From Myxococcota bacterium (GTDB taxonomy: Bacteria > Myxococcota_A > Polyangia > HGW-17), in NCBI GenBank assembly GCA_018821305.1, contig JAHJMN010000189.1:55115-119114 (forward strand): a stretch of DNA of 64,000 bases, read 5' to 3'. Below the pieces are notes generated by a model, which was not told the origin of the DNA, ran no database searches, and was given only the letters and a program-made list of their open reading frames with translations. The position numbers and the translations under genes are program-made. How positions within the stretch are numbered: the stretch's first letter is position 1; every line of letters begins with the position of its first letter. Of this stretch, positions 2,754 through 37,593 are shown piece after piece.

Positions 2754-4937
2754 ATGAAAAATAAATTTTTTTGGGCGACCAGTATTATCTTTATTGCAGC
2801 ATGTTCATTTGATACTTCAGGTCTCGACAATAACAATTCAAGTTGTGGAGACAACGTCATAAATGGTTCAGAAGAATGTGAAGGTAACGACCTTGATGGT
2901 GAAGATTGTATAAGTCTTGGCTTTTATGGAGGATCTCTAAGCTGTTCATCTGATTGCACTTTCAATACTTCTTTATGCACTGGCACTTGCGGTGACAGTA
3001 TAATAAATGGTTCAGAAGAGTGTGACGGGGTGGATATCGCTAATCATACCTGTGCAGACGAAGGGTTCAATGCAGGAATTGTTACCTGTAACACAGACTG
3101 TACTTTTGACATTTCCGATTGCCATGGAGAAGCAGTTTGCGGAGATGGAATTCTTCAATCTGGAGAAGAATGCGATGAAGTTGATTTTGGCGATTCAACC
3201 TGTTTAACTCTTGGTTTTTATGGTGGCGTTTTAGGTTGTAACAATGACTGCACTCTCAACATATCTGATTGTCAGGCCAATGGTTATTGCGGAGATTCAA
3301 CGGTTCAGACACAAAGAGAGGATTGTGACGGCACATCGCTTTCTAACACTACATGCATTTCCCTTGGTTTTTACGGTGGCAACCTACTTTGTTCTGATGA
3401 GTGCAGTTTTAATACTACTGATTGTGAAGCCCAGGGTATGTGCGGAGATGGTATTATTCAAGACGGGCATGGTGAAATCTGTGATCTTGAGAATTTCGGT
3501 TCTCACACATGCGCTGACTACAATTATTACGAAGGAACACCTTTATGTGTAGGTTGCACTGAGGTTAACACATCTCCCTGTATTGGAAGATGCGGTGATA
3601 ATATAGTACAAACGAACTACGGAGAAGTCTGTGATGTTCTTAATTTAAACAATCGCTACTGTCGCAATGAAGGATTCTTTAACGGAACTCTTTCTTGTGA
3701 ATCTAACTGCAGTTCTTATATTTCATCAAGTTGTTTACCTTTAACCGAACTGAATTTATTACAGGAAAACTGGGGCCGCGATATTATTATGGATGATGCT
3801 GGTAATATTTTTATTACCGGGAGAAAAAGAAATCTCGCAAATTCCAACTGGGATGGCTATGTCACAAAATATGATATTTCCGGAAATCCAGTTTTTTCAA
3901 ATCTAATTGCCTCTTCCAGCGATGAAATGGGGTATTCCGTTAAAAAAGATTCCCTGGGGAATATTTATGTTATGGGATATTCGGAAGGTTCGATCCAGAC
4001 CACAGGTACAAAACCCGGGGGAAGTGATATTTTTCTCGCAAAATATGATTCCGCTGGAAACCAGTTGTGGATCCGACTGTATGGAACAGCGGGCTATGAT
4101 ACTGGTCGACACATGGCCCTTGACTCCGCAGGCAATGTAATCCTCATTGGCTATACATCGGTAGCAAACTCCACTGGTACTGATTCTAACAATGATGTTA
4201 TTATTATAAAAACAGATTCTTCAGGGACGGAGTTGTGGAAAGACACTTTTGGTGTAGCAAACGTTGATGACTTGGGCCTTGGTGTAACTGTTGACCATTT
4301 TGATAATATCTATATAGCTGGCATAACCTATGGAAATCTTGAAGGACAAACAAAAACGGGTTCATACGCTGGATTTGTCACTAAATTTCTTTCAACGGGA
4401 GCAAAGCAGTGGACGAGAATTCTCGAGTTTTCATCAATTACAGGAATTGATTATGCCTCTTTCATTTACTCCATAGATTTCAATAGAGTAAGCGGGGAAA
4501 TCGTTGTTGGCGGTTATACTGTTTATGATTACGGCACCACGAATGAACGAAATTATGTAATTCAAACATTGACAACAGCGGGAACTCTGAATAATCCAAT
4601 AATACATGAAATAAACAACTCAAACGAGATATTTGTAGAAGTACATGCAGCAGACGATGGAAACATATATGCCACAGGCTCCATGTCCAATGAGCTTTCC
4701 GGAGCAGATTATGATGGTCTCAAGGATGTGCTGATAGTGAAATTTGATTCGGCCCTGAATCATTTATGGACACGCTCATTCGGTGGTTCCGGAGAAGATG
4801 AAGGATTTGCAGTTTCAACTGCCGGTGGACTCAATGCCGGCTCTGTTTGCGTGACCGGGTATTCCGGAAGCAGCAACGGTGATTTTTCGGGATATACAAC
4901 TAGAAATGCATTCGTTGCATGCATTTCTGAAGACTAA
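2754..4937 (+). CDS. secreted lipoprotein: six Myxococcus-type cysteine-rich repeats followed by SBBP beta-propeller repeats
   Basis: Signal peptide with lipobox (IAAC). Six units of about 48 aa with the pattern CGD...EECD...C..LGFYGG.L.C...C.F...C. C-terminal repeats such as GNIYVMGYSEG...GGSDIFLAKYDSAGNQLW are typical of the SBBP beta-propeller repeat. Confidence 0.75.
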   Translation: MKNKFFWATSIIFIAACSFDTSGLDNNNSSCGDNVINGSEECEGNDLDGEDCISLGFYGGSLSCSSDCTFNTSLCTGTCGDSIINGSEECDGVDIANHTCADEGFNAGIVTCNTDCTFDISDCHGEAVCGDGILQSGEECDEVDFGDSTCLTLGFYGGVLGCNNDCTLNISDCQANGYCGDSTVQTQREDCDGTSLSNTTCISLGFYGGNLLCSDECSFNTTDCEAQGMCGDGIIQDGHGEICDLENFGSHTCADYNYYEGTPLCVGCTEVNTSPCIGRCGDNIVQTNYGEVCDVLNLNNRYCRNEGFFNGTLSCESNCSSYISSSCLPLTELNLLQENWGRDIIMDDAGNIFITGRKRNLANSNWDGYVTKYDISGNPVFSNLIASSSDEMGYSVKKDSLGNIYVMGYSEGSIQTTGTKPGGSDIFLAKYDSAGNQLWIRLYGTAGYDTGRHMALDSAGNVILIGYTSVANSTGTDSNNDVIIIKTDSSGTELWKDTFGVANVDDLGLGVTVDHFDNIYIAGITYGNLEGQTKTGSYAGFVTKFLSTGAKQWTRILEFSSITGIDYASFIYSIDFNRVSGEIVVGGYTVYDYGTTNERNYVIQTLTTAGTLNNPIIHEINNSNEIFVEVHAADDGNIYATGSMSNELSGADYDGLKDVLIVKFDSALNHLWTRSFGGSGEDEGFAVSTAGGLNAGSVCVTGYSGSSNGDFSGYTTRNAFVACISED
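2844..3735 (+). repeat. in-frame tandem array of six cysteine-rich repeat units of about 150 nt inside the lipoprotein gene
   Basis: Periodic recurrence of tgcggagat/tgtggagac ... gaagaatg(t/c)ga ... ggtttttatggtgg at roughly 150-nt spacing. Confidence 0.7.
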
Positions 4938-4968: not shown

Positions 4969-5778
4969 TCAGCGGGAATGCTCAAGAAACTCATTTATTT
5001 CAATAACTAATTCGTCCGTTACGTAAACTTTGTTTCGATATTTTAAAAACTTTGGAACCGAAACATGACCCTGACTTGGAACGAGGGGAAAACCAAGAAT
5101 TTCTGTCCAGTCTTCGATTAAGGGTAGAAAACCCATTGGCCCTGAAGTAACGTCCCCATGATGATTTTCGATAGATACAGAAATTTCCGGGGGTATATGC
5201 CACTTTTCAAATAATTGGGCCGCAGCTCTGCAGTGGCTTGTCTTAAACATTTTAAGTTCGCTACGGTTCCCGTCTTTCGAATCGCCAAAGCGAGCAAGTA
5301 CATTTGGATACAACCTTTTAAACTTAAGAATTAAAAGGAAAATCCCAATATCATGAAGCAAGCCCATGGTAAATGCTTCATCTGATTCGCAACCACTCTC
5401 TGAAGCCAGTTTTTTACACAACCATGCAGAGACGAGACTGTGTTTCCAGAACATATCAGCATCTAAGGGCGGTTTTAAAATATCGCTTGTCGTTATCACA
5501 TTCATTGTAGCTGACAGTATTAAATGACCTATTAAACGCTGTCCAAGGAGAATTACTGCCTGTTTCAATGAAGTTACGGGTTTACCAATCCCATAAAAAG
5601 GGCTGTTAGCCAATTTCAGTACTCTTGCCGCTAAAATACTATCCTGACTCAGCAACTCACCAAGTTCCGCAGCAGTCGCGTTGCCCCCAGTTATAGCAGC
5701 CCTCAGTTTTGTACATGCGTCGACACTGCCGGGAAGTTGCTTTATTTCTTCTGTAAAATCAATTGTTTCTTCAGTCAT
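4969..5778 (-). CDS. HDOD-domain signalling protein
   Basis: AAELGELLSQDSILAARVLKLANSPFYG...LKQAVILLG matches the HDOD signature. Last gene of a tightly packed minus-strand unit. Confidence 0.75.
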   Translation of the reverse strand: MTEETIDFTEEIKQLPGSVDACTKLRAAITGGNATAAELGELLSQDSILAARVLKLANSPFYGIGKPVTSLKQAVILLGQRLIGHLILSATMNVITTSDILKPPLDADMFWKHSLVSAWLCKKLASESGCESDEAFTMGLLHDIGIFLLILKFKRLYPNVLARFGDSKDGNRSELKMFKTSHCRAAAQLFEKWHIPPEISVSIENHHGDVTSGPMGFLPLIEDWTEILGFPLVPSQGHVSVPKFLKYRNKVYVTDELVIEINEFLEHSR

Positions 5779-6435
5779 TTATTTTCCACTTGTAAAAACA
5801 TCCTGACGAAGAACACGCATTCTTATGGAAGTTCCGGAATCATCAGGTTCTGATGCGGATTCATCCTGCCAGGCAATAAAATAAAGATCTCCTACTTTTA
5901 CTACTGTCGGCATTTTCTGATGATTCAGGTAGGTAGTATTGACAGAAATTTCGTCGCTCATGGGATTAGCGCCATAATCAAAACGACGCCCCCTTATCCC
6001 GGCACCGTTTCCATCCACAGCACGTCCCGTTCCGTAAGGGATACACAAACCTTCATGACACCAGGTATCGCCTGAACATTGTTCATCCCCCGTGCAGTTT
6101 CCCTGAGTATCTATGCATGTATTATCAAGGCAGAGCTGCTGCTCTGTGCAACATTCGTCTCCACACGGAGTAGTATCTGGATCACACTGAACAGAACCGT
6201 CAGCATCCGCCGCATCAAATACATCACCATCGGATGCGTCAGTAATATCAGTAATATCCGCATCAATTATATCGGAGCCAGCATCTGTTATTTCTCGTAC
6301 GCAAATATGGTTTACGCACTTCAGGCCATCAGCACAAGCCAGGCGAATCCCACATTCATCTCCTTCACCTGAGCCATGATATTCCGTTCCAATAGTGCAT
6401 GATGTAAATATTATAAGAATTACCAGATATTTCAT
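5779..6435 (-). CDS. secreted cysteine-rich, acidic lipoprotein (unknown function)
   Basis: Signal peptide MKYLVILIIFTSCTIG (lipobox). Many Cys and D-rich stretches (DADITDITDASDGD). Start overlaps the dapA stop, and its stop abuts the HDOD start. Confidence 0.55.
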   Translation of the reverse strand: MKYLVILIIFTSCTIGTEYHGSGEGDECGIRLACADGLKCVNHICVREITDAGSDIIDADITDITDASDGDVFDAADADGSVQCDPDTTPCGDECCTEQQLCLDNTCIDTQGNCTGDEQCSGDTWCHEGLCIPYGTGRAVDGNGAGIRGRRFDYGANPMSDEISVNTTYLNHQKMPTVVKVGDLYFIAWQDESASEPDDSGTSIRMRVLRQDVFTSGK

Positions 6436-7304
6436 ATAATTCCTACCTTTTCAAGTTCATTTTCCAGTATCCGAGCCGATTCATTGGAGAGCTCTGATAG
6501 TGGAAGTCTCACTTCATGACTTTTTATGAGCCCCATTTTCATAAGCGCATACTTTACAGGCGCAGGACTTGTTTCAATGAAGAGCAGGTCACATAATCTT
6601 AAATATTTATAATAAATATCAAGGCTTTCACTTGAATTCGATGACCAACAATCAAACATTTTATGGAATTCTTTCGGAACCAGGTTAGCAACAACACTGA
6701 TAGCCCCCTGCCCTCCAATTGCAAGGAGAGGAAGATTTATTTTATCATCGCCACTTAAAAGGGGAAAACCCGGGCATAATTTTAAAATATCTGCTGCCTG
6801 ACCAACATTACCTGATGCTTCCTTGATTGCAATTATATTTTTGTGCTCATAAAGCCTTGAAACAACTGAGGGACTCATATTGATACCAGTTCGACCTGGA
6901 ACATTATATAAAATCACTGGAATTGGGGATGAATCGGCAACTTTTGTAAAATGACGAGCAAGCCCTTCAGGGCCTGGTTTGTTATAATATGGGGTAACAA
7001 CGAGAGCAGTCTGGGCCCCATACTCAGCGGCAAGTCGGGTTCTTACAATGGTTTTTTCCGTATCATTCATTCCAGTTCCGACAATAAGTGGAATCCTGCC
7101 CCCAATTTTATCAGCAGCATTCTTTACAACCGTACAAAACTCATCATCAGAAAGAGTTGCTGCTTCCCCGGTGGTTCCGCAGACAACAATTCCATCTGTT
7201 TCGTTTTCCAGATGATAATTAATTAATTTCAAAAAAGAATCATTATCAAGTTTTCCTTGCAAAAACGGGGTTACAACAGCGACAATAGAGCCTTTTATAA
7301 GCAT
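6432..7304 (-). CDS. dapA: 4-hydroxy-tetrahydrodipicolinate synthase
   Basis: N-terminus MLIKGSIVAVVTPF, GTTGE motif and overall DapA/NAL-family conservation; 290 aa. Confidence 0.9.
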   Translation of the reverse strand: MLIKGSIVAVVTPFLQGKLDNDSFLKLINYHLENETDGIVVCGTTGEAATLSDDEFCTVVKNAADKIGGRIPLIVGTGMNDTEKTIVRTRLAAEYGAQTALVVTPYYNKPGPEGLARHFTKVADSSPIPVILYNVPGRTGINMSPSVVSRLYEHKNIIAIKEASGNVGQAADILKLCPGFPLLSGDDKINLPLLAIGGQGAISVVANLVPKEFHKMFDCWSSNSSESLDIYYKYLRLCDLLFIETSPAPVKYALMKMGLIKSHEVRLPLSELSNESARILENELEKVGII

Positions 7305-7470: not shown

Positions 7471-7650
7471 CATAATAATGAATATGTTCCATTTTGCTTT
7501 TTTTTTCAACAAACTCTTGTACCAATTTCGAAAATGATTCTTTACAGGTGAGGTTAATTTGGCGACTTAAAGATTTCAGCTTGAATTTATATCTGAAATA
7601 CTTTTTACTTTAAAACTAATAGGAGACACAAAGCGCCTCCTGAGGAATAC

Positions 7651-8406
7651 ATGAATCTGAACTCATTCAAATGGCTCGGTTATTTTTTCCTTCTCTCCGG
7701 AATGGGGATTGTAACCCTCTCCATGGGCTGGATTGCTGGATTTCACGGTCTCGGTACCCTCATGACTGTCTCATTAATTCCTCTTCTTCTGGCTGTTCTT
7801 ATTTCGTTTTTTGTCATCAATATTCAGGAGAACGATCTTAAAAAAAGAGACCTGGAACGGAATCTGAACATGAGAACAATACAATTACAGGAAGCAAATC
7901 AGATAATCCGAAGGATTTCTACTAAAGATAGACTGACAGGGCTGTACAATCGCCGGGGACTGAGAGAATTATTGAAACGTGAAATACTTCGATGTGAACG
8001 TCTCAAGACATCCCTTGTTGTTCTGGCAATTACATTTGATGAAGGACGCGATAAAGATAATATAAAAAGATACTCAATGATGAGCGTTCTTGGTAAAAAA
8101 TTGTCAAACTACATTCGCTCTACTGATGTTTTTGCGAGGGTAAGCGAAGATACACTGGCAATTCTTCTTCTGGATACTGGAGTAGATGGTACAAAAATCT
8201 TTCTCGACAGACTTTATGAACAGTTGAACCAGAGCAGTTTCCGATTTCCCGTTTTCAGAGCAGGGTTGGCAATTTTTCCAACACACAGCCCTAATCCTGA
8301 TGATTTAATTAACATGGCTATGCATACGGCGAAACAAACGAACCCAGGCGATATGGGAATTTCTGACGGATTTATACCCGACAATGTACACTCCGGGATT
8401 GACTGA
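7651..8406 (+). CDS. membrane-anchored degenerate GGDEF-domain protein (GGDEF replaced by SEDT; I-site RxxD retained)
   Basis: Two N-terminal TM helices. DRLTGLYNRRGL matches the GGDEF-domain start. The position of RYGGEEF reads RVSEDTLAILL. RSTD sits five residues upstream, matching the I-site RxxD. Confidence 0.65.
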   Translation: MNLNSFKWLGYFFLLSGMGIVTLSMGWIAGFHGLGTLMTVSLIPLLLAVLISFFVINIQENDLKKRDLERNLNMRTIQLQEANQIIRRISTKDRLTGLYNRRGLRELLKREILRCERLKTSLVVLAITFDEGRDKDNIKRYSMMSVLGKKLSNYIRSTDVFARVSEDTLAILLLDTGVDGTKIFLDRLYEQLNQSSFRFPVFRAGLAIFPTHSPNPDDLINMAMHTAKQTNPGDMGISDGFIPDNVHSGID

Positions 8407-8407
8407 T

Positions 8408-8549
8408 TAGTTCGTGTCCTGTAATTCGCTTCGCGAAGGATTTTATTAAAAATCCTAACAGGCCACTATTAATATTTTCAACATCTTGTGGTTACTATCC
8501 AGGAAAAAAAATCGACGAAAAATCTTTGTATTACAGGACATTAACTAAT
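8408..8549 (+). mobile_element. MITE-like intergenic repeat (module A copy)
   Basis: tagttcgtgtcctgtaattcgcttcgcgaaggattttattaaaaatcctaacaggccacta ... gtattacaggacattaactaat. The terminal inverted repeat is GTCCTGTAAT / ATTACAGGAC. Confidence 0.7.
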
Positions 8550-8659
8550 TATTCCTCTGTTTTTTATCAGTTTTTTCTTTTCTTTTTAATATTTTGCTTT
8601 ATGAAGTAACTGTTTTGTTTGTTTGTTTTAAATTTATTTATTTTACCATAGGAGGCCAT

Positions 8660-10435
8660 ATGAGGATTTTCATTTTATCAACCACTTTTCTACTACTCTG
8701 GTCTACAAACGCCAGCGCTGCTCAGGAACTGCCTAATTACAGATCTTTTTATAATACTCTTCAGAAAAAAGTTGCGGATATAAAGAGAGAGTCTGTTTAC
8801 AACACAACAAAAAAACCAGAGAAAAAAGCCAAACGAAATTTGTTTCGTATGAAAGTAGGATCGAAAAGCATCGATTATTCAAAACTTGATGCAGTAGTCC
8901 TGCCAATAGATCCTCTGAAATTTGACTGCTCACACACAAATATATCCCGGGGTATGCCAACAGATCCGAGATTTCGCAAGGGTTCAATCAAATCTGCCCT
9001 CAGTTGGGCAAAGGATTATCTTTTCTCATCTAAACCATCAAGATCCGGCCCCGTCGAAGCTTGCAACAAAGGCATGTGGAACCTCATGAAAGCCAGATGC
9101 ATGGACAGCCGCGATCCTGAAATCGCACAACTCTATGTTAAAGGACGAACACACTGTCGTCGTGTTTTCAGGCGATGGTGGGTTGAAGAAACCTATAAAG
9201 CTGAAGGAAAAGAAATCCCACTGTGGGCCGTAGACCCCTCATCTTTGACGGAGCAAATTGCATCGAAAATCAGGTGGGGCGAGAATTACCTTAAAACTCC
9301 ATCAAAGTGGTACAGTTACATGATTGAATATTTGGATATTCTCTCAATCGATCCCAAAAATCGTTTTGCAAAAAAAGGTTTCGATATCATGTACTCCAGC
9401 TACTTTGGAGTGTCCCAGGACGAAGCTCGTAAGGCCAGAAAATCAGGAATCCTTGGTGGACCTCTTTCTACCCTCCCAAAGTCTGATTTGTATAAAAAAG
9501 CAATTAATGAACTCCTCGGAAAGCATCATACAGTTTCTGGTAATATCCCAACACTTGGGCTGACTTACAGAGATGTTAATTATCTTCTCACGATGGTTTA
9601 TCTACCTGCTATTCGGCGTAATCAATCTCAGTTCGCTTCACTCAAATGCTCAATTAATCTCAGAAAAGGCATGAAGGATTTTCGTGAAAAAGCTGTTACC
9701 GAAGAAATGAAACTGGAAAAATCCAGATATTGTTACCCATCAAGTCTCACGGTAGCAGGATCTGATGTAATGCGATACCCGACCATAAGACTGAAACTTA
9801 TTGAGATTCTTTCAAAACAAACAGATACACCTGCCGATGTCTATGCCGAAGCAGCTAAAACTGTGGCCAGACAAATCGGAGCTAAAAAATCCAGAGTCTG
9901 CTGGCTCCATGAAAATCCATATCCGGAGTCAATTAATCCATCTGCTGGAAATAAAGCAAATTGCTCAAGTTTTGGTCATTCTGGATACCACAATGTTCGA
10001 CCCGGTTTTTATAACTATGTATATGAACCAGTCAAACTGAACACTTTAACCTTCCTTCAGGTTAAGCTTGCAAGAAAACTTATTAAAGATATTCCTGCTG
10101 CATCAGGCCTTGACGGCAAACTTGCAAGAGTTGAAAAGAGAGCAAAAAAAGAAAAATGTCTCGCATGGGATATCACCATAGCATGGGATTACTTTGGGCG
10201 TGGAAAATGGGGAAAACCATACCGCTATTCAAACGGTGGACCTAAAGAAGTAAGCTGTGGTTCATTCGCAAGAAGTGGATTATTTTCTACAATTTTCAAG
10301 ACATGGAACAACTTTTTTGACACTGTTTTTGGCGGCCGTTTTACTGGAGGCGAACGAATTATTCGTCGTCGCTACAGTGGAGTTATACTCCGGAAAACTC
10401 GGGAAGGCCGACTTTTTGTAAAGCGTAAAATCTGA
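8660..10435 (+). CDS. secreted hypothetical protein, K/R-rich
   Basis: ATG at 8660 has AGGAGG six nt upstream. Signal peptide MRIFILSTTFLLLWSTNASAAQE. The ORF-track start at 8594 is a TTG and probably spurious. Confidence 0.55.
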   Translation: MRIFILSTTFLLLWSTNASAAQELPNYRSFYNTLQKKVADIKRESVYNTTKKPEKKAKRNLFRMKVGSKSIDYSKLDAVVLPIDPLKFDCSHTNISRGMPTDPRFRKGSIKSALSWAKDYLFSSKPSRSGPVEACNKGMWNLMKARCMDSRDPEIAQLYVKGRTHCRRVFRRWWVEETYKAEGKEIPLWAVDPSSLTEQIASKIRWGENYLKTPSKWYSYMIEYLDILSIDPKNRFAKKGFDIMYSSYFGVSQDEARKARKSGILGGPLSTLPKSDLYKKAINELLGKHHTVSGNIPTLGLTYRDVNYLLTMVYLPAIRRNQSQFASLKCSINLRKGMKDFREKAVTEEMKLEKSRYCYPSSLTVAGSDVMRYPTIRLKLIEILSKQTDTPADVYAEAAKTVARQIGAKKSRVCWLHENPYPESINPSAGNKANCSSFGHSGYHNVRPGFYNYVYEPVKLNTLTFLQVKLARKLIKDIPAASGLDGKLARVEKRAKKEKCLAWDITIAWDYFGRGKWGKPYRYSNGGPKEVSCGSFARSGLFSTIFKTWNNFFDTVFGGRFTGGERIIRRRYSGVILRKTREGRLFVKRKI

Positions 10436-10563: not shown

Positions 10564-13500
10564 ATGATTTCCGATAATTTTCAGTCTTCGCCACTTTTCA
10601 ATCAAATAGTTGATAATATTCTTGAAAATGTTGACATTAAACTTAGCTCCGGGGATCTGGCTGATCTTCGCACTGTTCTCGTGGGAGCAAGGAATCAACT
10701 TATTTCCATTGAAAGAGAACTCGCTAATCTGAGTATAAAAACTGAAGAGATAAAGCGAGCAAATAAAAATTTTCTCAAATTGTATAATAGTGCTCCAGTT
10801 GGTTACCTGAGCATAGATATTGAAGGAAAAATTATTTCAATTAATATAACTGGAGCATCTCTTCTGGGCAAGCTTCAGATAAATCTTATTGGAGATAACT
10901 TTTTCACTTTCTTATCTAAAGACGAACATGAGCTTCTTTCGGAAAAGATCAGAAATACCGCTATCACCGGGGAATCATTTAAGCATGATCTGACAATTAA
11001 CCGACCTAACGGTTCAATGATGCATGCAGCTCTCGAAGGCGAAGTTGCCTCTTCTCATGACGGTTTTTTCAATATTGTTATCAGTGATATTACCATCCGT
11101 AAAATTTCCGAAATGGCCCTCAGGCGTTCGGAAGGATGGTTTCGAGCAACAATTGACGCCGTAAGTGAAATACTTGTAGTTGTCGATCCTTCTCTTAGAA
11201 TTCTGCTTTGTAATGAAGCATTTAGAAGGCAAATGGCCAGGATTAAAAAGTTTTCTGAACCTGTGGGTGAAAACATTATTGATTTTTGTCCATTTTTGGG
11301 TGAACGAGAGCGCAATGAATTCCAATGGATTTTCGAAACGGGCAAAGCAGTCAACTCGCGTATTGATTTCAAATCGGACTCCTTTGATTTGTTTCTTGAA
11401 ACTCGGCTTATTCCTATTTTCGATAATCAGGGAAAAGTAGTTCAGACCCTTGGCGTAATGACAAACATCACTGATAAAGTGATTGCCACAAATGCCAGTG
11501 AAGAAAAAGAAGTCTACCTTAAGGGCATTATTGAAAATGCTAACGACATAATCTTTTCTTTCAATCTCGACGGTTCAATTACATATATTTCCCCGGCGTT
11601 TTCTCGAATTCTAGGTAGAAATACCAGAGATATTCTAGGGAAAAATCTTTCTTCAAACCTTCATGCAGACGACATTGCCGAGTGGGAAAAAGCTACCAGA
11701 GTACTTCTTACGGACCATGAACCAATACGGAACCTTAAAATCCGTTTTAAAAACAAAAGCAATGAATGGTGGTGGTTTCTTGTAAGTATGTCTATTGTTG
11801 AAAACAAAGATGGCAACATCATCTATGGAGTCGGTGTTGCGACGGATATTAACGCACTCATTAAATATCAGGAAGCACTGGAAGAATCACGTCTTAGTTA
11901 TAAAGAATTATGGGAAAGTCAGGGAGAAGGTGCCGCTTTTCTGGATCCCAATGAAGTATTTATTCATGTTAACCCCTTTGGAGAAAAGATTTTCGGTCTT
12001 GACAGAGGTGTTCTCAAAGGTCGTAGTCTTCTTGAATTTGTTGATAATCAGGACCTGATTACGCTCCGTAATGAAACAAAGAAAAGGAAAAAGGGAGAGT
12101 CCAGTAACTACGAGCTCAAAATTAAACTGCCGGATGAAACAAATCGCATTATTTCAATTACTGCAGCGCCTAAATTTGATGACGTGGATGGAACGTACCT
12201 CGGAACTTTTGCTATTTTCCGTGATATCACTTCCAAAAAGGAACTCGAAAACAACCTCAGGAACAGTGAAGAAAGACATCGACAATTATTTGAAAATAAT
12301 GCTGCGGTGCAACTGATTATAAGCGCAATGGATGGAAGCATTATTGATGCAAATCCCGCAGCAAGTAAGTTTTATGGACATTCCAGAGAAAAATTGCGAT
12401 GCATGAACATGACTGATTTGAATGGTCTGACAACGGATCATGTCAAAGAATTTATTCGTCAGAGATTAGAAGAAGAAAAGTATATATTTCATCTTAAACA
12501 TAAACTGGCAAGCGGCGAACTACGAGATGTTGAGGTTAAAACCAGCCCCGTAAAGATAAACGACGACCTTTTAATTCACTCTTTTATTACTGACATAACC
12601 CAGCAGCGTTTGAGCGGGGAAAAATCAGCACATCTCGAAAGAATGCTCATCCATTCTCAGCGAATGGAAGTTTTCGGTAATATAGCCAAAAGCTTAACCA
12701 CAGAATTTTCTACAATTTTATCCGAGATTGGAGAAAAAACTACATTTCTGCGGAAAGGTGGCCAACTTCCGCCGGAATCTGCGGAAATAGATTCTCTTAT
12801 TGAAAAGGGACAAAAGCTTATAAACCATATTCTTATGTTTGGCTCTAATCTCCCCTTTGAGCTACAAAAGTGGGATCTTATCCCATTTATCGAAAGAATG
12901 CAGCCCATCATCGGTATGATTCTTGGTGCAAACTATGAGCTTTCCTTTCAACTCAAGGGTGGTGGAAGTGTCTTTCTTGACCCAATTCTTATGGAGCAGG
13001 TCATTGTCAACATAATTACAAACAGTCGTGATTCAATGCCGAGAGGTGGCTCTGTTACCGTATCAACTGATACTGCAACTTTTGCTGAACCCAGCCACGC
13101 TCTGGGTCTCTCTTCCGGTCGGTACTCAGTTATAACAATTCATGATCAGGGAGTGGGCGTAGAAAAAGAAATGGAAAAACACATTTTTGAACCATTTCTT
13201 ACCACCAGGCGTATCAAGTCCTCTACCACAGGCTTGTCCCTGATTACCGTGCATGGAATTATGAAACAACATTTGGGTGCCATTGAATTAGTTAATGAAT
13301 TTGGCGTTGGGACCATGGTCAGACTATATATGCCACTGATTGATGGTGTTGAAGTAACAACCTGTGATGATAGAATCCTGAATAAAACTGTACTTATTGT
13401 AGACGATGAAGAGGGGATAAGAGCCGTAACCCGGAAAATTCTTGAAATGGAAGGATTAAGAGTAATCGAATCACCGTCAGGAGAAGACGCACTTAAGTTT

Positions 13501-13746
13501 ATTGAAATACATCATCCAGAGATTGATCTTGCAATAATTGATATGATATTACCTGGAATGACTGGCAATATATTCAGCCAGTCACTTGCAGAATTATACC
13601 CTTCAACTCTAATGTTATTTATTTCCGGTTACCCGGAAAGCCTTGTTGCAAGGCTTGGAATTGATGAAAGCAAAGTAAACTTTCTATCCAAACCATTCAG
13701 TGTAAAACAATTCCGGGATAAAGTTCGCAGCATTCTCTGCATGTAA
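10564..13746 (+). CDS. multi-PAS hybrid histidine-kinase-like protein with C-terminal receiver; canonical phospho-acceptor His absent
   Basis: At least four PAS-like blocks. The dimerisation/H-box region reads SQRMEVFGNIAKSLTTEFSTIL where related kinases have KMEAvGrLAGGvAHDFNNLL. HATPase N box NIITNSRDSMPRGG and G1 DQGVGV are present; the G2 box is degenerate (TTGLSL). The REC domain has DDEEG, the acceptor Asp in IIDMILPGMTG, and S and K in the expected places. Confidence 0.75.
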   Translation: MISDNFQSSPLFNQIVDNILENVDIKLSSGDLADLRTVLVGARNQLISIERELANLSIKTEEIKRANKNFLKLYNSAPVGYLSIDIEGKIISINITGASLLGKLQINLIGDNFFTFLSKDEHELLSEKIRNTAITGESFKHDLTINRPNGSMMHAALEGEVASSHDGFFNIVISDITIRKISEMALRRSEGWFRATIDAVSEILVVVDPSLRILLCNEAFRRQMARIKKFSEPVGENIIDFCPFLGERERNEFQWIFETGKAVNSRIDFKSDSFDLFLETRLIPIFDNQGKVVQTLGVMTNITDKVIATNASEEKEVYLKGIIENANDIIFSFNLDGSITYISPAFSRILGRNTRDILGKNLSSNLHADDIAEWEKATRVLLTDHEPIRNLKIRFKNKSNEWWWFLVSMSIVENKDGNIIYGVGVATDINALIKYQEALEESRLSYKELWESQGEGAAFLDPNEVFIHVNPFGEKIFGLDRGVLKGRSLLEFVDNQDLITLRNETKKRKKGESSNYELKIKLPDETNRIISITAAPKFDDVDGTYLGTFAIFRDITSKKELENNLRNSEERHRQLFENNAAVQLIISAMDGSIIDANPAASKFYGHSREKLRCMNMTDLNGLTTDHVKEFIRQRLEEEKYIFHLKHKLASGELRDVEVKTSPVKINDDLLIHSFITDITQQRLSGEKSAHLERMLIHSQRMEVFGNIAKSLTTEFSTILSEIGEKTTFLRKGGQLPPESAEIDSLIEKGQKLINHILMFGSNLPFELQKWDLIPFIERMQPIIGMILGANYELSFQLKGGGSVFLDPILMEQVIVNIITNSRDSMPRGGSVTVSTDTATFAEPSHALGLSSGRYSVITIHDQGVGVEKEMEKHIFEPFLTTRRIKSSTTGLSLITVHGIMKQHLGAIELVNEFGVGTMVRLYMPLIDGVEVTTCDDRILNKTVLIVDDEEGIRAVTRKILEMEGLRVIESPSGEDALKFIEIHHPEIDLAIIDMILPGMTGNIFSQSLAELYPSTLMLFISGYPESLVARLGIDESKVNFLSKPFSVKQFRDKVRSILCM

Positions 13747-13759
13747 AATAGCTTTTTAT

Positions 13760-14908
13760 TCAGGTGCCCCTGAGGGAAATAACTTCATCATATATAGATT
13801 CCAGTTTTTCATTAACTTTAATTATATCATAATGTTCAAGCATTCGCTCTCGAGCGTTTTTCCCCAATTCTTCTCGTAATACTCTGTTAGAAAGAATGCG
13901 AAAAAGACCATCGGCCATCCCTGCTACATCTCTCTCAGGATAAAGAAAACCAGTCTTTCCATCTGCAACAATATCCGGTAGACCCCCATGCCAGTGTGCC
14001 AGGACCGGAACACCACATGCCTGCGCTTCTTTTGCGACTATCAAACCAGATTCCCTGTCCATATTTGGAGCGACCAGAGAAGGTGTTATAACTACCGTAG
14101 CCTGTTTCATTGCCTTCATTACTTCGTCATGAGGAAGAGCTCCCGGCATTTCAACTAAATTTGAAACTCCATATTTTTCTGCAATTTCTATTAGTTCCCC
14201 CCGAAGAGGGCCATCTCCAATAATAAGCATTTTCGCTGCAACACCGCGGTGAACAGCATGTGCAAATGCTCTTATTCCAAAAGCAAATCCCTTTTTTGCT
14301 ACAAATCGGCCAACCATGACAACCAGATTATCCCCTGGACTGACTGCTGGTGGTGAAAAACGAGAAATATCTATACCCAGTTTGTGTACTTTAATTTTAT
14401 TTTCAGGACAACCGGCTTCAATTGCCAGCTCTTTAAGTTCCGAAGACGCCGCCAGAAATAGTGTGGCATGGTTGAAAATTTCATTTTTCCGCATTGTATA
14501 ATAAAAAAATTCAGGATTCTTCTGATCAGGTCCAACTAAAATCGTCACATCTCTACCATGAAGTGAGACAACAAGAGGAATTTTAAACTTTTTAGCATAA
14601 GGTAAAGCATACAGTGTATTATGACCGAAGTGAGCATGAATAAGTTTAAAATCTCTTTGGGCAAAAACATTGTAAAAAGGTTTATATAAACCAGTAAGAC
14701 CATAAATTAAACTTGCAGGACTTAAAGAACCCATTAAATTCTGATCCGTTGAAAACACTTCATGCCCAGGATAAACATCTCGATTCAGATACTTCCTGGC
14801 AAATACAGTGCCGCGATATTTTTTATGAAAACGAAGTTCATCGTGAATGAACGTCTCGGATAAATGTAGAAAATTATTTCTAAAAAGAGCAAATTCAAGT
14901 ACTGACAT
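13760..14908 (-). CDS. glycosyltransferase family 4 (GT-B fold)
   Basis: EAQACGVPVLAHWHGGLPDIV matches the E-A-x-A-x-G-x-P-V motif of the GT1/GT4 C-terminal domain; about 380 aa. Confidence 0.8.
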   Translation of the reverse strand: MSVLEFALFRNNFLHLSETFIHDELRFHKKYRGTVFARKYLNRDVYPGHEVFSTDQNLMGSLSPASLIYGLTGLYKPFYNVFAQRDFKLIHAHFGHNTLYALPYAKKFKIPLVVSLHGRDVTILVGPDQKNPEFFYYTMRKNEIFNHATLFLAASSELKELAIEAGCPENKIKVHKLGIDISRFSPPAVSPGDNLVVMVGRFVAKKGFAFGIRAFAHAVHRGVAAKMLIIGDGPLRGELIEIAEKYGVSNLVEMPGALPHDEVMKAMKQATVVITPSLVAPNMDRESGLIVAKEAQACGVPVLAHWHGGLPDIVADGKTGFLYPERDVAGMADGLFRILSNRVLREELGKNARERMLEHYDIIKVNEKLESIYDEVISLRGT

Positions 14909-16385
14909 TGGTGGTTCCTTTCTTGAATTTTAAATCTTTATTAAGTGAGAAGTAAAAAATTGCATAAATTGCCATGAGGCCACCCCCGGTAATTAATCTT
15001 GCAACAAGAGTTGAACGGGTAAATAACGGGAAAAATGGCCATAAGAAAATCAATAATCCAAGTATAATCCAGAAAGATAGTATTTTCAGAGATAAAACCA
15101 TTCCTATGAGCTTTCTCGCCTCAATAATCTGCATTATGGAGACTATAGTCCCGGAAATTGCCGTTGCAACTGCAGCCCCCATGAGGCCCCAATGAGGTAT
15201 TAAAATTAAATTAAATATGAAATTAAGCACCCCTACGGTAATGGAATTGAATAGATTCCAGCGGGAAAACCCAGCCATAATTATCGCATTTCCCGTAAGA
15301 CCTGTTGCTATAGAAAGGAAGGGATTTATCAGGAGGATAATCATGAAGTCTGGATTCTGATTAAAAGAAGAATCAAAAAGCATTACAAGATCCTGTCGGT
15401 AGAATGCGACCACAAACAGGGCTGGAATTCCAAGGGATATTGCCCATCCTGTAATTTTTTCAAATATATTATTAAGCTCAGATATTCTACCTTCATGATA
15501 GTGCCTGGCAATGACCGGACTGTAGATTCCTGAAAAAATAAGCTTTACTTGACGTACATTCCGTACGATTTGAGCACCAATGCTATAGAACGCTATCATG
15601 CCTGGTTTAACTCCAAAACCAGCAAGCATAAGTACATCCATGGAAGAAATCAGGCGATTAAGTGCCATGTTCAAGTTCTGAGCAATGGCGAAAGTAAAAA
15701 GATCCGGGGTAGGTTTGTACACGAATTTAAAAGACATAAACTTACGGATATCTACCAGCCTGTTAAGCATAAAAATAGAGACAACCCCGGTGATGACCCA
15801 GCCGAGTAAAAAAGATAGCCCGGTGCCCACAGTACCCAAATCACACAAACGAAAAAGAACTGCCAGTACCAAAGTCGCGATGGGAAATACTCCACCTATT
15901 GTGATGACTTCTACACCCATTTTCAGGTGTGCTTTTGGAATAGCTACCGCAAGACGTGAAACGGCTTCCAGAGGTAAGATAAATGCCATTATCTGCAGCA
16001 TAGGGACTAGCTCGGGATAATCTTTGTAATAAAATTTATTTAGAACAGGGGCTCCGAATACCAGAAGAAGGGCAAGGACAGTGCTTAGTAGCAGTGTTGA
16101 AAGAATAATCTTTCTCATGTACGAATTGAATACATCCGAGTTATTCTCATCGTGAATATGCCTTGATGCGAACATCACTGTAGCATCAATAAAACCGCTT
16201 ATAGCAAGACCTCCCAGTATTTCCACAAGATTGTATGCAATAAAGAAAATTCCTATCGAAACTTTACCATACATTCTTGTGAGAACCAGAAAAAGAACAG
16301 GTCCCCCAATTATTTTTGTAAGCATTCCAATGAAATTTACAAAAGCTCCTTTTTTTATCTTTCTGGTAATATCAGCTTCAGTCAT
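14895..16385 (-). CDS. polysaccharide/oligosaccharide flippase (Wzx-like, MOP superfamily)
   Basis: 496 aa, about 12 to 14 predicted TM helices, N-terminus KKGAFVNFIGMLTKIIGG typical of Wzx. Overlaps the GT4 gene by 14 nt. Confidence 0.75.
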   Translation of the reverse strand: MTEADITRKIKKGAFVNFIGMLTKIIGGPVLFLVLTRMYGKVSIGIFFIAYNLVEILGGLAISGFIDATVMFASRHIHDENNSDVFNSYMRKIILSTLLLSTVLALLLVFGAPVLNKFYYKDYPELVPMLQIMAFILPLEAVSRLAVAIPKAHLKMGVEVITIGGVFPIATLVLAVLFRLCDLGTVGTGLSFLLGWVITGVVSIFMLNRLVDIRKFMSFKFVYKPTPDLFTFAIAQNLNMALNRLISSMDVLMLAGFGVKPGMIAFYSIGAQIVRNVRQVKLIFSGIYSPVIARHYHEGRISELNNIFEKITGWAISLGIPALFVVAFYRQDLVMLFDSSFNQNPDFMIILLINPFLSIATGLTGNAIIMAGFSRWNLFNSITVGVLNFIFNLILIPHWGLMGAAVATAISGTIVSIMQIIEARKLIGMVLSLKILSFWIILGLLIFLWPFFPLFTRSTLVARLITGGGLMAIYAIFYFSLNKDLKFKKGTTNVST

Positions 16386-16428
16386 ATTGGCTTTTTATCA
16401 CATGTGAGAAACAGCAGAAACAGAATTT

Positions 16429-18708
16429 TCAGGGGACAGCGTAAATGCGAACGGACCAGGGCGGGAGAGAAACATTTACCTGTCCTGATGAAACAGATAA
16501 AGTGTCCGTCTCGTAAAGAACATCTGCAAGTGTAGTTCCATCAGAAATGCCCCAGGATGACTTCATTTCTATCTGGGTATTACAGCCATCATTTCCACCT
16601 AAAACAACAAGCAAACGTTCGTTTCCAAGTTTTTTAAGGTATGCCAGACAAGACGCAGATCCATGACCTGCATCATAACTTCCAGTCCTGAGAGCTTTGT
16701 AAGTATTTCTTGCATGATTAAGTCTTGAAACGAGATCCTTGAGATTTCTCTGAGCATCACTCAAATTAGTATCCGAAAAATCCATCATCCTGCGATTATC
16801 CGGATCCTTAACACCAGCAAGTCCGAATTCATCACCGTAATAAATAACAGGAAGTCCACGCACTGTCAGAAGAAAACCGAAAGCAACACCCATACGTTGA
16901 TATACAGTAGCATCACCAGTTTGAGGTACAAGTGCCTCATTAAATGCCTGACATCCGTCTCCATTTGCCTGTCCTGCGGCTACCGAGGAAAATCTCTCGA
17001 CATCATGGTTGCCGAGGAAAGTCCCCATAAGTGTACCAGTGGAAATTGAACCTTCCAACGCCCAATCAAGATCAGTAATGTTCTGACGATTAATATGATT
17101 CTCATATATAAATGTATTCAGATCAAGCAGATTGCTTACAGCACCTATTAAAGCAGTACGTATAGCTCCATACATTGGAAAATCAAACTGTCCCTGTAAT
17201 TCTGAAGAGCTTATTTTCTCATTTATTATACCGTAATCGTACAGGAAGTTTTCACCAACCATATAAAATGGCGCAGTAATGGAGGATGCTTTTTGGTCTA
17301 GTTCTCGCCTGAGAAGTCTCAAATAGTTTGAATTTATATGCTTTGTTGCATCTACCCGAAATCCGTCCAGATCGAATGTATCCACCCACCACATGGCATC
17401 ATCAATTAACTGACGAAGCAGAAGATGGTTTTTGTGATTGTAGTCAGGAAGATATTCTGTGAACCAGCAAGTGAGCGCATATTCATTCCACCCGAGGTGA
17501 CCGCACTTGTTTTTCCAGAACTCATCAGTATTAATGCTTCCTGGATAATTAAACCAGAATTGATTTCCGTAATATTGTTCATGCAGCGGATGATCTATAA
17601 ATATGTGATTGGCTGCCCAGTCAACCAGCACCCGGATTCCTCTGGCATGAGCCTCATAGACAAGTTCCTGAAGATCCTCAATAGTACCGAAATGATTCTC
17701 AACATCACGTGCTGCCTGAGGCCAGTAAGCATGATATCCAGAGAACGACTGACCACAATCACCCGGTAATGCGTAATCGGGATTGTCCATTGGCGTTGAA
17801 AGCCACAAAGCAGTAATGCCTAAATCTTCAAAGAAGCCATCTTTGAGTTTTTGAGTTATGCCCTTCCAGTCACCTCCACGCCAGTTAACCTGTTCCGGAA
17901 GTCCGGAGATAGGAGCATCATTTGAAACATCGCCATTATAAAATCTATCGACAAAAATGGAGTACATTATCATGTCTTCCCAGACTTTTCCTTCAGGCTC
18001 CATCCAGAAAGATAAATTTCTTGAATATGTTGTTCCATTTTCTGAATTTACGTTTATTTCAACTTTATATTTTCCAAGTACCAGATTTGATGCGGTTACT
18101 GTCCCAATTCCTGTTTGTGGGTTAAAATTAAGTGAAGAATTGACTTCAACCCCATCTTTTCTTAGTATTGCCTCGACGTTTTCAATATTTGAACCATCTC
18201 CTCCGCGATAGATCTGAAATGTCATGGATGCAGATTTTTCATCCCAGTTCACAGTTGTGTTTAACTCCCTGGTTGTAGCAGAACTACAATCAGGAAGAGT
18301 CATCAGTGAGTTTTCATTGATTTGAGTCTTATCCCAGATAGTATACGGATTTGATGAATCCAAATGCCAATTTGTAGAATCCGAAACTAATTTATATTCG
18401 TATTCTCCAGCGGGGAGGATTATTAAGCCAGGCCTGGATTCATGGGGATTACTCGTAACTGAAATAGTCCAGGTATAACCATCCCTAAGTAAAAGCCAGT
18501 CATCATCAATTTGCCACTCATTAAAGTTTCCTGCAAGATGGACACTGCCTTCACTTCCGGCATTATAAACAATATTAAAAGTACAATCAGTTCTAACAGG
18601 AATGCTGCTTGAATTATTTGTATTATTACTATTGTTTCCGGTATTAGTTGATGACTCATCACAACCGAGTGAAAATAGTGACACACATAAAATAAGTAAA
18701 AATTTCAT
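16429..18708 (-). CDS. GH13 alpha-amylase-family glycoside hydrolase, lipoprotein with N-terminal accessory domains
   Basis: Lipobox LFSLGCDE. GH13 region II GFRVDATKHI, region IV FLGNHD, region I-like VLVDWAANH. Confidence 0.85.
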   Translation of the reverse strand: MKFLLILCVSLFSLGCDESSTNTGNNSNNTNNSSSIPVRTDCTFNIVYNAGSEGSVHLAGNFNEWQIDDDWLLLRDGYTWTISVTSNPHESRPGLIILPAGEYEYKLVSDSTNWHLDSSNPYTIWDKTQINENSLMTLPDCSSATTRELNTTVNWDEKSASMTFQIYRGGDGSNIENVEAILRKDGVEVNSSLNFNPQTGIGTVTASNLVLGKYKVEINVNSENGTTYSRNLSFWMEPEGKVWEDMIMYSIFVDRFYNGDVSNDAPISGLPEQVNWRGGDWKGITQKLKDGFFEDLGITALWLSTPMDNPDYALPGDCGQSFSGYHAYWPQAARDVENHFGTIEDLQELVYEAHARGIRVLVDWAANHIFIDHPLHEQYYGNQFWFNYPGSINTDEFWKNKCGHLGWNEYALTCWFTEYLPDYNHKNHLLLRQLIDDAMWWVDTFDLDGFRVDATKHINSNYLRLLRRELDQKASSITAPFYMVGENFLYDYGIINEKISSSELQGQFDFPMYGAIRTALIGAVSNLLDLNTFIYENHINRQNITDLDWALEGSISTGTLMGTFLGNHDVERFSSVAAGQANGDGCQAFNEALVPQTGDATVYQRMGVAFGFLLTVRGLPVIYYGDEFGLAGVKDPDNRRMMDFSDTNLSDAQRNLKDLVSRLNHARNTYKALRTGSYDAGHGSASCLAYLKKLGNERLLVVLGGNDGCNTQIEMKSSWGISDGTTLADVLYETDTLSVSSGQVNVSLPPWSVRIYAVP

Positions 18709-18770
18709 AATTTACCACCTGCCTGTCCTGCGGGACATTGGTAAAATATATAGCATATATCAGCCTTTTT

Positions 18771-19517
18771 CTATTCTTTTTGATTACTTTTTTCTTTTTT
18801 AATTGATTTTATTAAGGATGGGTCATCAAGATCCTCAAAGTTTTCTGGTATTTCTATTTTTTTTCCAGGCTCTTTAGATTCTTGAACAACTTCATCGGAC
18901 TCGATTGGATTTTCTTCTATTATATCTATGTCTTCAGAAGCATCTTCTGAGTCCGTCTCTGATATTAAATTATTAAAAAGACAAGGAACATTTATTTCTT
19001 CAAGAATTTCTATAGATTCAAAATCATCATTCTGAACAGGAGTTTCATTCTCCAGATCAACTACTAGTTCGCGGAACTCAGGGATTGGTTTTATCCAATT
19101 AGCCCACAAGGTACGGACAACATCGTTGGCGCCTGCAATAAAAATTTTTGTTTTGGGTGGAAATATATCGACTATTGCATCCCGAGTCTGTTTTTCATTA
19201 TATGAACTGGTAGCAATAAAAAGTGCTCCGGATTCAGGATCGCTACAAAATGGTACAAAATGGTAATTTAAACAGACATTCAAACCATATTGATTCACAA
19301 GGATTCTGGGAATCGGTTTTTCTTCAAGGAGTACACAGGGCATATCCCATTGATATGCGAGACACTCTACGAGTTGAAACTCTGTAATCAACCCTTCAGA
19401 AATTAGAATCCGACCCAATTTTCCACCGAAATATTCCTGTTTCCACAAACAGAAAGCTAATTGCTCGTGGGTTATCAACTCTTTTATGATAAGTATCTGT
19501 CCTAATTTCATACGCAT
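18771..19517 (-). CDS. standalone MshEN (T2SS-E N-terminal-like) domain protein, putative c-di-GMP receptor, with an acidic C-terminal tail
   Basis: Two tandem copies of the MshEN motif RLGxxLLxxGLLxxxxLxxxLxxQ: KLGQILIIKELITHEQLAFCLWKQ and KLGRILISEGLITEFQLVECLAYQ. The second matches perfectly. Confidence 0.65.
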   Translation of the reverse strand: MRMKLGQILIIKELITHEQLAFCLWKQEYFGGKLGRILISEGLITEFQLVECLAYQWDMPCVLLEEKPIPRILVNQYGLNVCLNYHFVPFCSDPESGALFIATSSYNEKQTRDAIVDIFPPKTKIFIAGANDVVRTLWANWIKPIPEFRELVVDLENETPVQNDDFESIEILEEINVPCLFNNLISETDSEDASEDIDIIEENPIESDEVVQESKEPGKKIEIPENFEDLDDPSLIKSIKKEKSNQKE

Positions 19518-37433: not shown

Positions 37434-37593
37434 CTTGAAATTATTGTAGTGTGTCCTGTTCCCTGATTCCCTTCAAAAAAACAACAGGAGCTTGCAAGAA
37501 GGAGCTGGCGATCAATGTTGTCCGAAAGGACAAACGGTATTTTTGAGTTATCTCTATTTTAATGTAACAGTTGAGGTCCGAAAGGAACTATTA

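Follow-up and report, generated by a model that had tools for sequence, protein, structure and literature searches.

A small membrane protein with a degenerate GGDEF domain and a conserved I-site is a candidate c-di-GMP receptor in Myxococcota

In a Myxococcota bacterium (assembly GCA_018821305.1), a stretch of 64,000 nucleotides (nt) from contig JAHJMN010000189.1, which was analyzed as a whole and is referred to here as the window, harbors at 7651..8406 of the forward strand (stop codon included) a coding sequence (CDS) for a membrane-anchored protein of 251 amino acids (aa) with a degenerate GGDEF domain. Judged by its aligned residues, this domain cannot synthesise cyclic di-GMP (c-di-GMP), and by the same alignments it keeps the full residue set of the inhibitory site (I-site), namely R156, D159, R187 and R114. 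We regard it as probable that the protein is an I-site receptor of c-di-GMP, that is, a small inner-membrane protein in which a dead cyclase domain would bind the former product, and present it here as a candidate.

In Myxococcota, c-di-GMP controls development and matrix production. The protein does not represent a new class, since degenerate GGDEF domains which serve as I-site receptors are textbook knowledge (PelD, PopA, PssE, CdgI) and the public annotation already reads GGDEF domain-containing. If binding is confirmed, a very small and lineage-specific I-site receptor would be added to the c-di-GMP effectors of Myxococcota. Furthermore, the minimal arrangement, in which a helix links a membrane hairpin to a dead GGDEF domain, would, in a true receptor, provide a tractable model for the way in which occupancy of the I-site is passed via a helix into the membrane.

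Architecture of the protein and fold of its domain

The open reading frame (ORF) on the forward strand starts with ATG, and a Shine-Dalgarno-like GAGGA (7642..7646, forward strand) can be read 4 nt upstream. Its product is identical to a public protein (P0001) named 'GGDEF domain-containing protein [Myxococcota bacterium]', which is encoded on a contig of 144.5 kb. A first-pass annotation, made by a model from the nucleotide sequence and a list of ORFs, had described a membrane GGDEF protein at this position, and this description is supported. Kyte-Doolittle hydropathy reveals two adjacent hydrophobic segments at approximately residues 8-31 and 37-58 with the loop HGLGT between them, and both coincide with predicted helices. 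The protein matches the Pfam model GGDEF (PF00990; 1.4e-12, 48.1 bits, cutoff 23.8) as well as the NCBIfam model TIGR00254 (43 bits, cutoff 37.4); owing to the divergence of the domain, the Pfam match falls into two parts.

In detail, the first transmembrane segment (TM1) together with the short loop comprises residues 8-36 (WLGYFFLLSGMGIVTLSMGWIAGFHGLGT; 7672..7758), is rich in glycine and shows the highest conservation in the protein, as deduced from hydropathy, conservation per region and a predicted helix. The second segment (TM2; residues 37-58, 7759..7824) contains the top hydropathy peak of 2.6 and is followed by a cytoplasmic linker or signalling helix (residues 59-92, 7825..7926) which leads to the GGDEF-fold domain (residues 93 to approximately 235, 7927..8355). 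The domain opens with D93-RLTGLYNRRGL. From Lys7 in front of TM1 and the sequence KKRDLER behind TM2 we infer, by the positive-inside rule, an N-in topology with a cytoplasmic GGDEF domain.

A structure model was calculated with AlphaFold2 for the monomer, with an alignment of 7 family sequences as input. Its mean predicted local distance difference test (pLDDT) is 73, with values of approximately 80-87 across most of the GGDEF domain. The model consists of a helix at residues 3-32, an unbroken helix at residues 34-91 which runs from TM2 through the linker, and thereafter the beta-alpha order of the GGDEF fold. The top Foldseek matches in the PDB consist exclusively of GGDEF domains (E 1e-9 to 1e-7, probability 1.00), amongst them the Geobacter GGDEF domain 6d9m, WspR (3bre), DgcR (6zxm), YfiN (7a7e) and DosC, and the target-normalised TM-scores to isolated GGDEF domains are approximately 0.65-0.75. 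In phmmer alignments against PDB sequences, the linker helix coincides with the helix located in front of the GGDEF domain of DgcR, of WspR and of a phytochrome cyclase; its invariant residues among the orthologues are R75, T76 and Q78-L-Q80. The domain itself is shortened, and the MAFFT alignment shows that 4 residues are missing from the GHxxGD loop and approximately 10 more before the last beta strands.

Motif register, lost active site and retained I-site

The register of the motifs was established by three alignments which agree with each other. The phmmer alignment with Leptospira biflexa DgcR, crystallised as 6zxm in complex with c-di-GMP, puts RSTD on RKSD and SEDTL on GGEEF, and leaves a 4-residue gap in the query facing the substrate loop GHEIGDQ. 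An hhalign comparison between the family profile and the GGDEF domain of PleD (probability 96.7%) places R156/D159 on R359/D362, S165-E-D-T-L169 on G368-G-E-E-F372, R187 on R390, R114 on R313 and T128 on D327. The same columns result from MAFFT with PleD and two canonical cyclases, and here R114, R156, D159 and R163 are invariant across the family and the enzymes. It has to be noted that the PleD sequence used (454 aa) was verified solely by its agreement with residue numbers from the literature, all of which fit (D53, R148, R178, R313, D327, N335, D344, R359, D362, E370, R390, K442 and R446). The DgcR alignment, taken from the PDB, yields the same register independently of this sequence.

The RxxD motif of the primary I-site is represented by RSTD (R156-D159; 8116..8127), which falls on RKSD of DgcR and RAID of PleD. 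It is separated by the five residues VFARV from SEDTL (S165-L169; 8143..8157), which occupies the GG(D/E)EF position of the active site (A-site). The first-pass annotation had placed RSTD in exactly this register, and had overlooked two further residues that make the I-site more complete. One is R187 (8209..8211), which is reached from SEDTL without a gap in hhalign and MAFFT and is the equivalent of PleD R390 and PelD R402, the third residue of the primary site. The other is R114 (7990..7992), the equivalent of PleD R313, a secondary I-site arginine which cross-links a neighbouring GGDEF domain.

The earlier claim of a dead active site, based on SEDTL in place of GGEEF, likewise holds and can be extended to the residues for metal and guanine binding. 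The signature of active cyclases, GG(D/E)EF or A/SGDEF, is found neither in this protein nor in any orthologue. The position of the catalytic metal-binding aspartate (PleD D327) is taken by T128 (8032..8034), and no Asn or Asp lines up with the guanine-binding residues N335 and D344 of PleD, where the 4-residue deletion cuts the loop.

Conservation in a small Myxococcota family

A word-indexed protein search detected only seven close proteins with 52-100% identity. In a profile search of 1.84 billion representatives clustered at 50% identity, one full-length protein and two fragments scored above 120 bits, and the rest were generic GGDEF proteins with at most 103 bits. Scanning the GTDB species genomes led to 13 matching contigs (L005-L017), all from metagenome-assembled genomes (MAGs) of Myxococcota with the labels Deltaproteobacteria, Polyangia, Kofleriaceae or Haliangium; L005 is the contig also named L001, and L016 and L017 contain the halves of one gene split over two contigs. 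The family is small and is seen only in Myxococcota. The orthologue alignment comprises 16 sequences from about a dozen MAGs, and percentages of conservation refer to the 12 full-length orthologues. The window has a GC content of 40%, unusually low for a genome of Myxococcota, and so have L005, L009 and L010, while the other orthologue-bearing contigs have 57-70%.

In the alignment, the R, T and D of the RxTD motif as well as R163, R187, R114 and R117 are invariant wherever they are covered, and R114 is present in 12/12 full-length orthologues. At the catalytic positions, not a single canonical residue is kept. The GGDEF position reads S/G/N-E/D-D/E-T-L/M and is never canonical; the metal-binding aspartate (PleD D327) is replaced by T, N, Q or K, and the position of PleD D344 carries Y, T or A or is deleted, depending on the alignment. 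The residues corresponding to D327, G368, G369, E370 and F372 of PleD are thus both non-canonical and variable, and the E371 position is an invariant threonine.

These replacements also bear on the idea that the protein might have remained a diguanylate cyclase by means of a non-canonical active site. Some non-canonical motifs do support catalysis, AGDEF of VCA0965 being a reported example (PMC3974145). Here, however, GGEEF has lost its two glycines, its second glutamate and its phenylalanine at once, the metal-binding aspartate is absent throughout the family, and the guanine-binding Asn and Asp have gone together with four residues of their loop. Because essentially all substrate- and metal-binding residues are lost, residual cyclase activity was rejected as an explanation, to which we assign next to no probability.

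The I-site residues are invariant in 4/4 cases compared to 28% invariant columns in the GGDEF domain as a whole, which corresponds to a chance of approximately 0.28^4 = 0.006 if columns are taken as independent, and this invariance holds across host loci of 40-70% GC. The asymmetry between a kept I-site and drifting catalytic residues is therefore real. Among generic GGDEF relatives outside the family, 135/161 carry G[GAS][DE]EF, and 119/135 of these have RxxD five residues upstream. The presence of RxxD can therefore be explained by descent, and, since the motif is common in relatives, conservation is the informative statistic.

The gene itself is evidently under constraint. Non-synonymous divergence among the orthologues (pN 0.15-0.32) is well below synonymous divergence (pS 0.47-0.84, with synonymous sites saturated or nearly so), and the single unsaturated pair of orthologues gives a dN/dS of 0.23, so the gene is maintained by purifying selection. 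A pseudogene or a relic under relaxed selection was ruled out by intact reading frames in approximately 12 genomes and by the same excess of synonymous over non-synonymous divergence. Taken from its sequences, the family is best seen as a cyclase lineage which apparently lost catalysis and kept product binding.

Proposed mechanism and rival explanations

The sequence features of the receptor class, namely RxxD five residues before a degenerate GGDEF site, the third arginine and differential conservation, are all present in the protein; a regulated output in the form of an operon partner or a fused effector domain was not found. The catalytic half-site is destroyed, and therefore the I-site could only serve as a sensor. 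In the proposed mechanism, the linker helices would hold a dimer, and an intercalated (c-di-GMP)2 would bind at R156/D159/R187 of one domain, as in PleD, DgcR, PelD and PssE. R114 of the partner domain would act in trans and cross-link the two GGDEF domains. Binding of the ligand might then shift the register or the packing of the helix through the continuous TM2-linker helix, and this shift may reach the glycine-rich TM1 and the loop, where it could affect contact with a membrane partner or self-association.

Several points weigh against a receptor. The RxxD motif and the flanking arginines are inherited from an ancestor bearing an I-site, and approximately 28% of the domain columns are invariant anyway, which makes the conservation of the I-site suggestive but not conclusive. 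There is no effector domain, and no conserved neighbour in the related loci points to an output. The structure model is of moderate confidence and covers the monomer only, and the PleD register depends on a sequence verified solely by its residue numbers.

The invariance of R114, a residue acting in trans, would also suit a decoy or inhibitor which forms heterodimers with active membrane cyclases, the I-site and R114 cross-linking non-productive pairs as proposed for CdgI of E. coli. The nearest relatives of the family are indeed canonical cyclases with an I-site, and the canonical motif also occurs in short matches, for instance P0126, P0158 and P0110. Nevertheless, a linked cyclase gene is absent from every locus examined and the conservation of TM1 would be left unexplained. 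This distinctly unlikely role is, moreover, not exclusive and can be regarded as a sub-case of the receptor model.

A further question concerns the identity of the ligand, as (p)ppGpp, pGpG, guanosine triphosphate (GTP) or a hybrid cyclic dinucleotide might occupy the site instead of c-di-GMP. The set of residues kept is precisely that of the I-site for c-di-GMP, and the GTP-binding residues of the A-site (PleD N335, D344) are absent. The structure of PleD with c-di-GMP and pppGpp (PDB 9g86) demonstrates that GGDEF domains can take other guanine nucleotides, and a new pocket could arise from the family-specific invariants of the remodelled A-site region. On the other hand, K442 and R446 of PleD lie beyond the region aligned by hhalign and MAFFT and are apparently not conserved in the orthologue alignment. 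We consider another ligand at this site improbable. Sensing of GTP at the A-site was ruled out, since essentially every residue for the binding of substrate or metal has been lost.

A conserved membrane hairpin

Invariant columns amount to 58% in TM1, 80% in the loop and 28% in the GGDEF domain. The conserved residues of TM1 and the loop are G10, G17, G19, G26, W27, G30, H32, G33 and G35, with invariant W27 and H32, and the family pattern reads GYFxLLxGMGxVTLxxGWIxGxHGxGT. Such conservation beyond that of the GGDEF domain is unexpected for a plain anchor and suggests a specific intramembrane interface. A profile of the hairpin alone gave no match at E <= 0.01 in an index of 5.8 billion proteins, a search in which the family members themselves were also missed.

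With its strongest conservation in TM1 and not in the GGDEF domain, the protein could also be a nucleotide-independent adaptor, in which the dead domain acts as a membrane-tethered module for protein interaction or scaffolding, like degenerate GGDEF proteins unable to bind c-di-GMP, and the I-site is kept for reasons of structure or as an interface. The lack of an output domain and of a conserved partner gene fits this explanation, and so do invariants specific to the family in the former substrate pocket (D136, S142-M-M144, T168) which have no known role in c-di-GMP binding. It is difficult to reconcile with the finding that all four residues contacting (c-di-GMP)2 in sites of the PleD/PelD type are invariant over the full range of GC contents while the catalytic residues drifted. 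The RxxD motif is commonly lost in degenerate GGDEF domains without a receptor role, for which FimX and LapD are examples. We regard the adaptor as fairly unlikely.

If the protein is a receptor, the conservation of TM1 and the loop above the nucleotide-binding domain implies that the hairpin itself could be the effector, and the protein would then represent a minimal and self-contained membrane device controlled by c-di-GMP. For example, a glycine-zipper oligomer could open, close or remodel the membrane, or the hairpin could gate an unlinked transporter or secretion complex. We give this extension little probability; if true, it would set the protein apart from accessory subunits of polysaccharide synthases of the PelD/PssE type.

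Comparison with known degenerate GGDEF proteins

The candidate receptor is of the same kind as PssE, PelD and CdgI, and it differs from them by its minimal hairpin, the missing operon context and its confinement to one small clade within the Myxococcota. PssE (Lmo0531) of Listeria monocytogenes consists of a transmembrane region and a GGDEF domain degenerated to DKDDA with RxxD five residues upstream, and binds approximately two molecules of c-di-GMP per protein with a Kd of 0.79 uM (PMC4125290). It resembles our protein in its small size, the N-terminal membrane region and the single degenerate GGDEF domain without any other output domain. However, its gene is the last of the pssA-E exopolysaccharide operon and has an evident target, in contrast to the gene described here with no conserved operon partner. 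Beyond the GGDEF fold, no specific sequence relationship between the two proteins was detected, and the tests made revealed no relation between their transmembrane modules.

PelD, too, is an inner-membrane protein with a degenerate GGDEF domain. Its binding residues are R367/D370/R402 in Pseudomonas aeruginosa and R363/D366/R395 in Bacillus cereus, and alanine variants abolish binding (PMC7112168); the former three match R156/D159/R187. The distance between the two arginines is 31 residues in our protein, as in PleD, compared to 35 in PelD. PelD has four transmembrane segments and a GAF domain between membrane and GGDEF domain and is encoded in the pel operon, whereas here a hairpin of two segments is joined directly to the domain by a helix. 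PelD is not among the PDB sequence matches or Foldseek matches of the protein, and Pfam scans of window ORFs of at least 150 aa found no pel genes nearby. An orthologue of PelD was ruled out on these grounds, i.e. no GAF domain, no pel operon and no specific match.

[quoted passage not shown] Like the present protein, it is membrane-attached with a stand-alone degenerate GGDEF domain, but in place of a minimal hairpin with a loop of approximately 5 residues it possesses a large sensory domain at its N-terminus, which DgcT and DgcX have as well. The closest sequence relatives are diguanylate cyclases of the PleD, DgcR and WspR type with an allosteric I-site, which share the fold, the register of the I-site residues and the helix preceding the domain. 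These are active enzymes in which the I-site serves product inhibition, in contrast to the destroyed catalytic half-site found here.

Genomic context of the gene

The 5′ neighbour is the divergent gene dapA (6432-7304; Pfam DHDPS). A divergent dapA accompanies the orthologue in five loci, namely the window, L005, L006, L007 and L010, and is replaced by a divergent gene for a HEAT-repeat protein in the loci with the labels Kofleriaceae or Haliangium (L011-L015). The 3′ neighbour is an ORF for a probable secreted protein of 613 aa (8594-10435, forward strand). Its probable start is Met23 (8660), which results in the signal peptide MRIFILSTTFLLLWSTNASA|AQ. This protein matches no Pfam family and has no homologue in any related locus according to tblastn. 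Co-transcription with the GGDEF gene appeared unlikely in view of a gap of approximately 250 bp to the probable start, a weak terminator-like hairpin at 8425-8437 and the absence of the gene from related loci.

A conserved operon partner was sought by all-vs-all clustering of the ORFs of 13 loci, by tblastn of the window neighbours and by Pfam scans of recurrent neighbours. None was detected by these approaches, which yielded only lineage-restricted synteny, and therefore the output cannot be read from the context. In L005 (10739-11596, reverse strand) and L009 (1365-2165, reverse strand), a gene for a PilZ-domain protein of approximately 280 aa (Pfam 2.6e-11) lies convergent and directly 3′ of the orthologue, the two proteins being 37% identical to each other; this is evidence for c-di-GMP signalling in related organisms. 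A PilZ protein of this type is absent from the 64-kb window.

Two genes located 26-30 kb from the GGDEF gene in the window, one for an M10 peptidase/Big-domain protein (33783-35189, forward strand) and one for a GDSL lipase (37492-38547, forward strand), have homologues directly adjacent to the orthologue in other loci and 3′ of it in some of them, the peptidase in L006, L007 and L009 and the lipase in L008 and L012-L016. The distance observed here is therefore attributed to a rearrangement in this lineage.

Further genes with relation to c-di-GMP

The first-pass annotation had postulated a local c-di-GMP signalling neighbourhood composed of an HDOD gene, the large secreted protein and a pseudo-kinase. 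The HDOD gene at 4969-5778 (reverse strand) is real (Pfam 2.4e-44), but it is located on the opposite strand and two genes away, and among 12 related loci an HDOD gene near the orthologue occurs only in the closest relative, L005. In that locus, the kinase lies on the other side of the HDOD gene. Together with the lack of homologues of the secreted protein, these observations do not support such a neighbourhood. For HDOD proteins, binding of c-di-GMP has been reported for SadB of P. fluorescens (PMC6543031), whereas it was not detected for SadB of P. aeruginosa (PMC12075610). Given the contradictory literature and the recurrence in only the closest relative, HDOD was rejected as a marker of c-di-GMP signalling.

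Apart from the gene under study, no GGDEF, EAL, HD-GYP or PilZ domain was found by Pfam scans of all window ORFs of at least 150 aa or, for six-frame ORFs from 80 aa upwards, by regular expressions for the motifs. Both methods thus agree with the earlier statement that the window encodes neither an active cyclase nor an active phosphodiesterase, although this says little for 64 kb of a larger genome.

The first-pass inventory had missed a stand-alone protein of 248 aa encoded at 18771-19517 (reverse strand). It passes the NCBIfam model NF053729 'cyclic di-GMP-binding domain, MshE-related' with 53.5 bits (cutoff 38) and shows a weak match to Pfam MshEN. Its N-terminus contains two tandem motifs of 24 residues, KLGQILIIKELITHEQLAFCLWKQ and KLGRILISEGLITEFQLVECLAYQ, with the five residues EYFGG between them. 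Compared to the published motif RLGxx(L/V/I)(L/V/I)xxG..., the first Arg is exchanged for Lys in the two copies. As a candidate c-di-GMP receptor recognised by its motifs, this protein provides better-founded evidence than HDOD for c-di-GMP signalling in this genome.

The MshE-motif gene heads a cluster on the reverse strand (13760-19517) which further consists of genes for an alpha-amylase-family protein (16429-18708), a Wzx-like membrane protein of 496 aa without Pfam match (14895-16385; polytopic with at least 10 hydrophobic segments) and a glycosyltransferase of family GT4 (13760-14908), the last overlapping the Wzx-like gene by 14 nt. By its gene content, it looks like a cluster for a glycan or exopolysaccharide and may be under the control of c-di-GMP.

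Other genes of the window

The kinase mentioned above is a protein of 1060 aa (10564-13746, forward strand) with multiple PAS domains, HATPase_c and a receiver domain and without a Pfam match to HisKA. The usual H-box motif AHDFNN carries the phospho-accepting His, and the corresponding region of this protein, HSQRMEVFGNIAKSLTTEFSTIL, has Thr at that position. The orthologue in L001 (SLTNEFSEIL) also lacks the His, and the label pseudo-kinase given in the first reading is consistent with these features.

Cys-rich secreted proteins with DUF4215-type and beta-propeller (SBBP) repeats are encoded at 2754-4937 (forward strand) and 5779-6435 (reverse strand). Homologues of the Cys-rich, FG-GAP or DUF4215 kind are found again close to the orthologue in several of the related loci, and the family seems to be expanded in these genomes. 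A full-length serpin is encoded at 49009-50409 (reverse strand; Pfam Serpin 1.5e-96), in a region that also contains genes for an FHA-domain protein (47917-48936), a TPR protein (46785-47909) and a Ser/Thr kinase (52850-54346).

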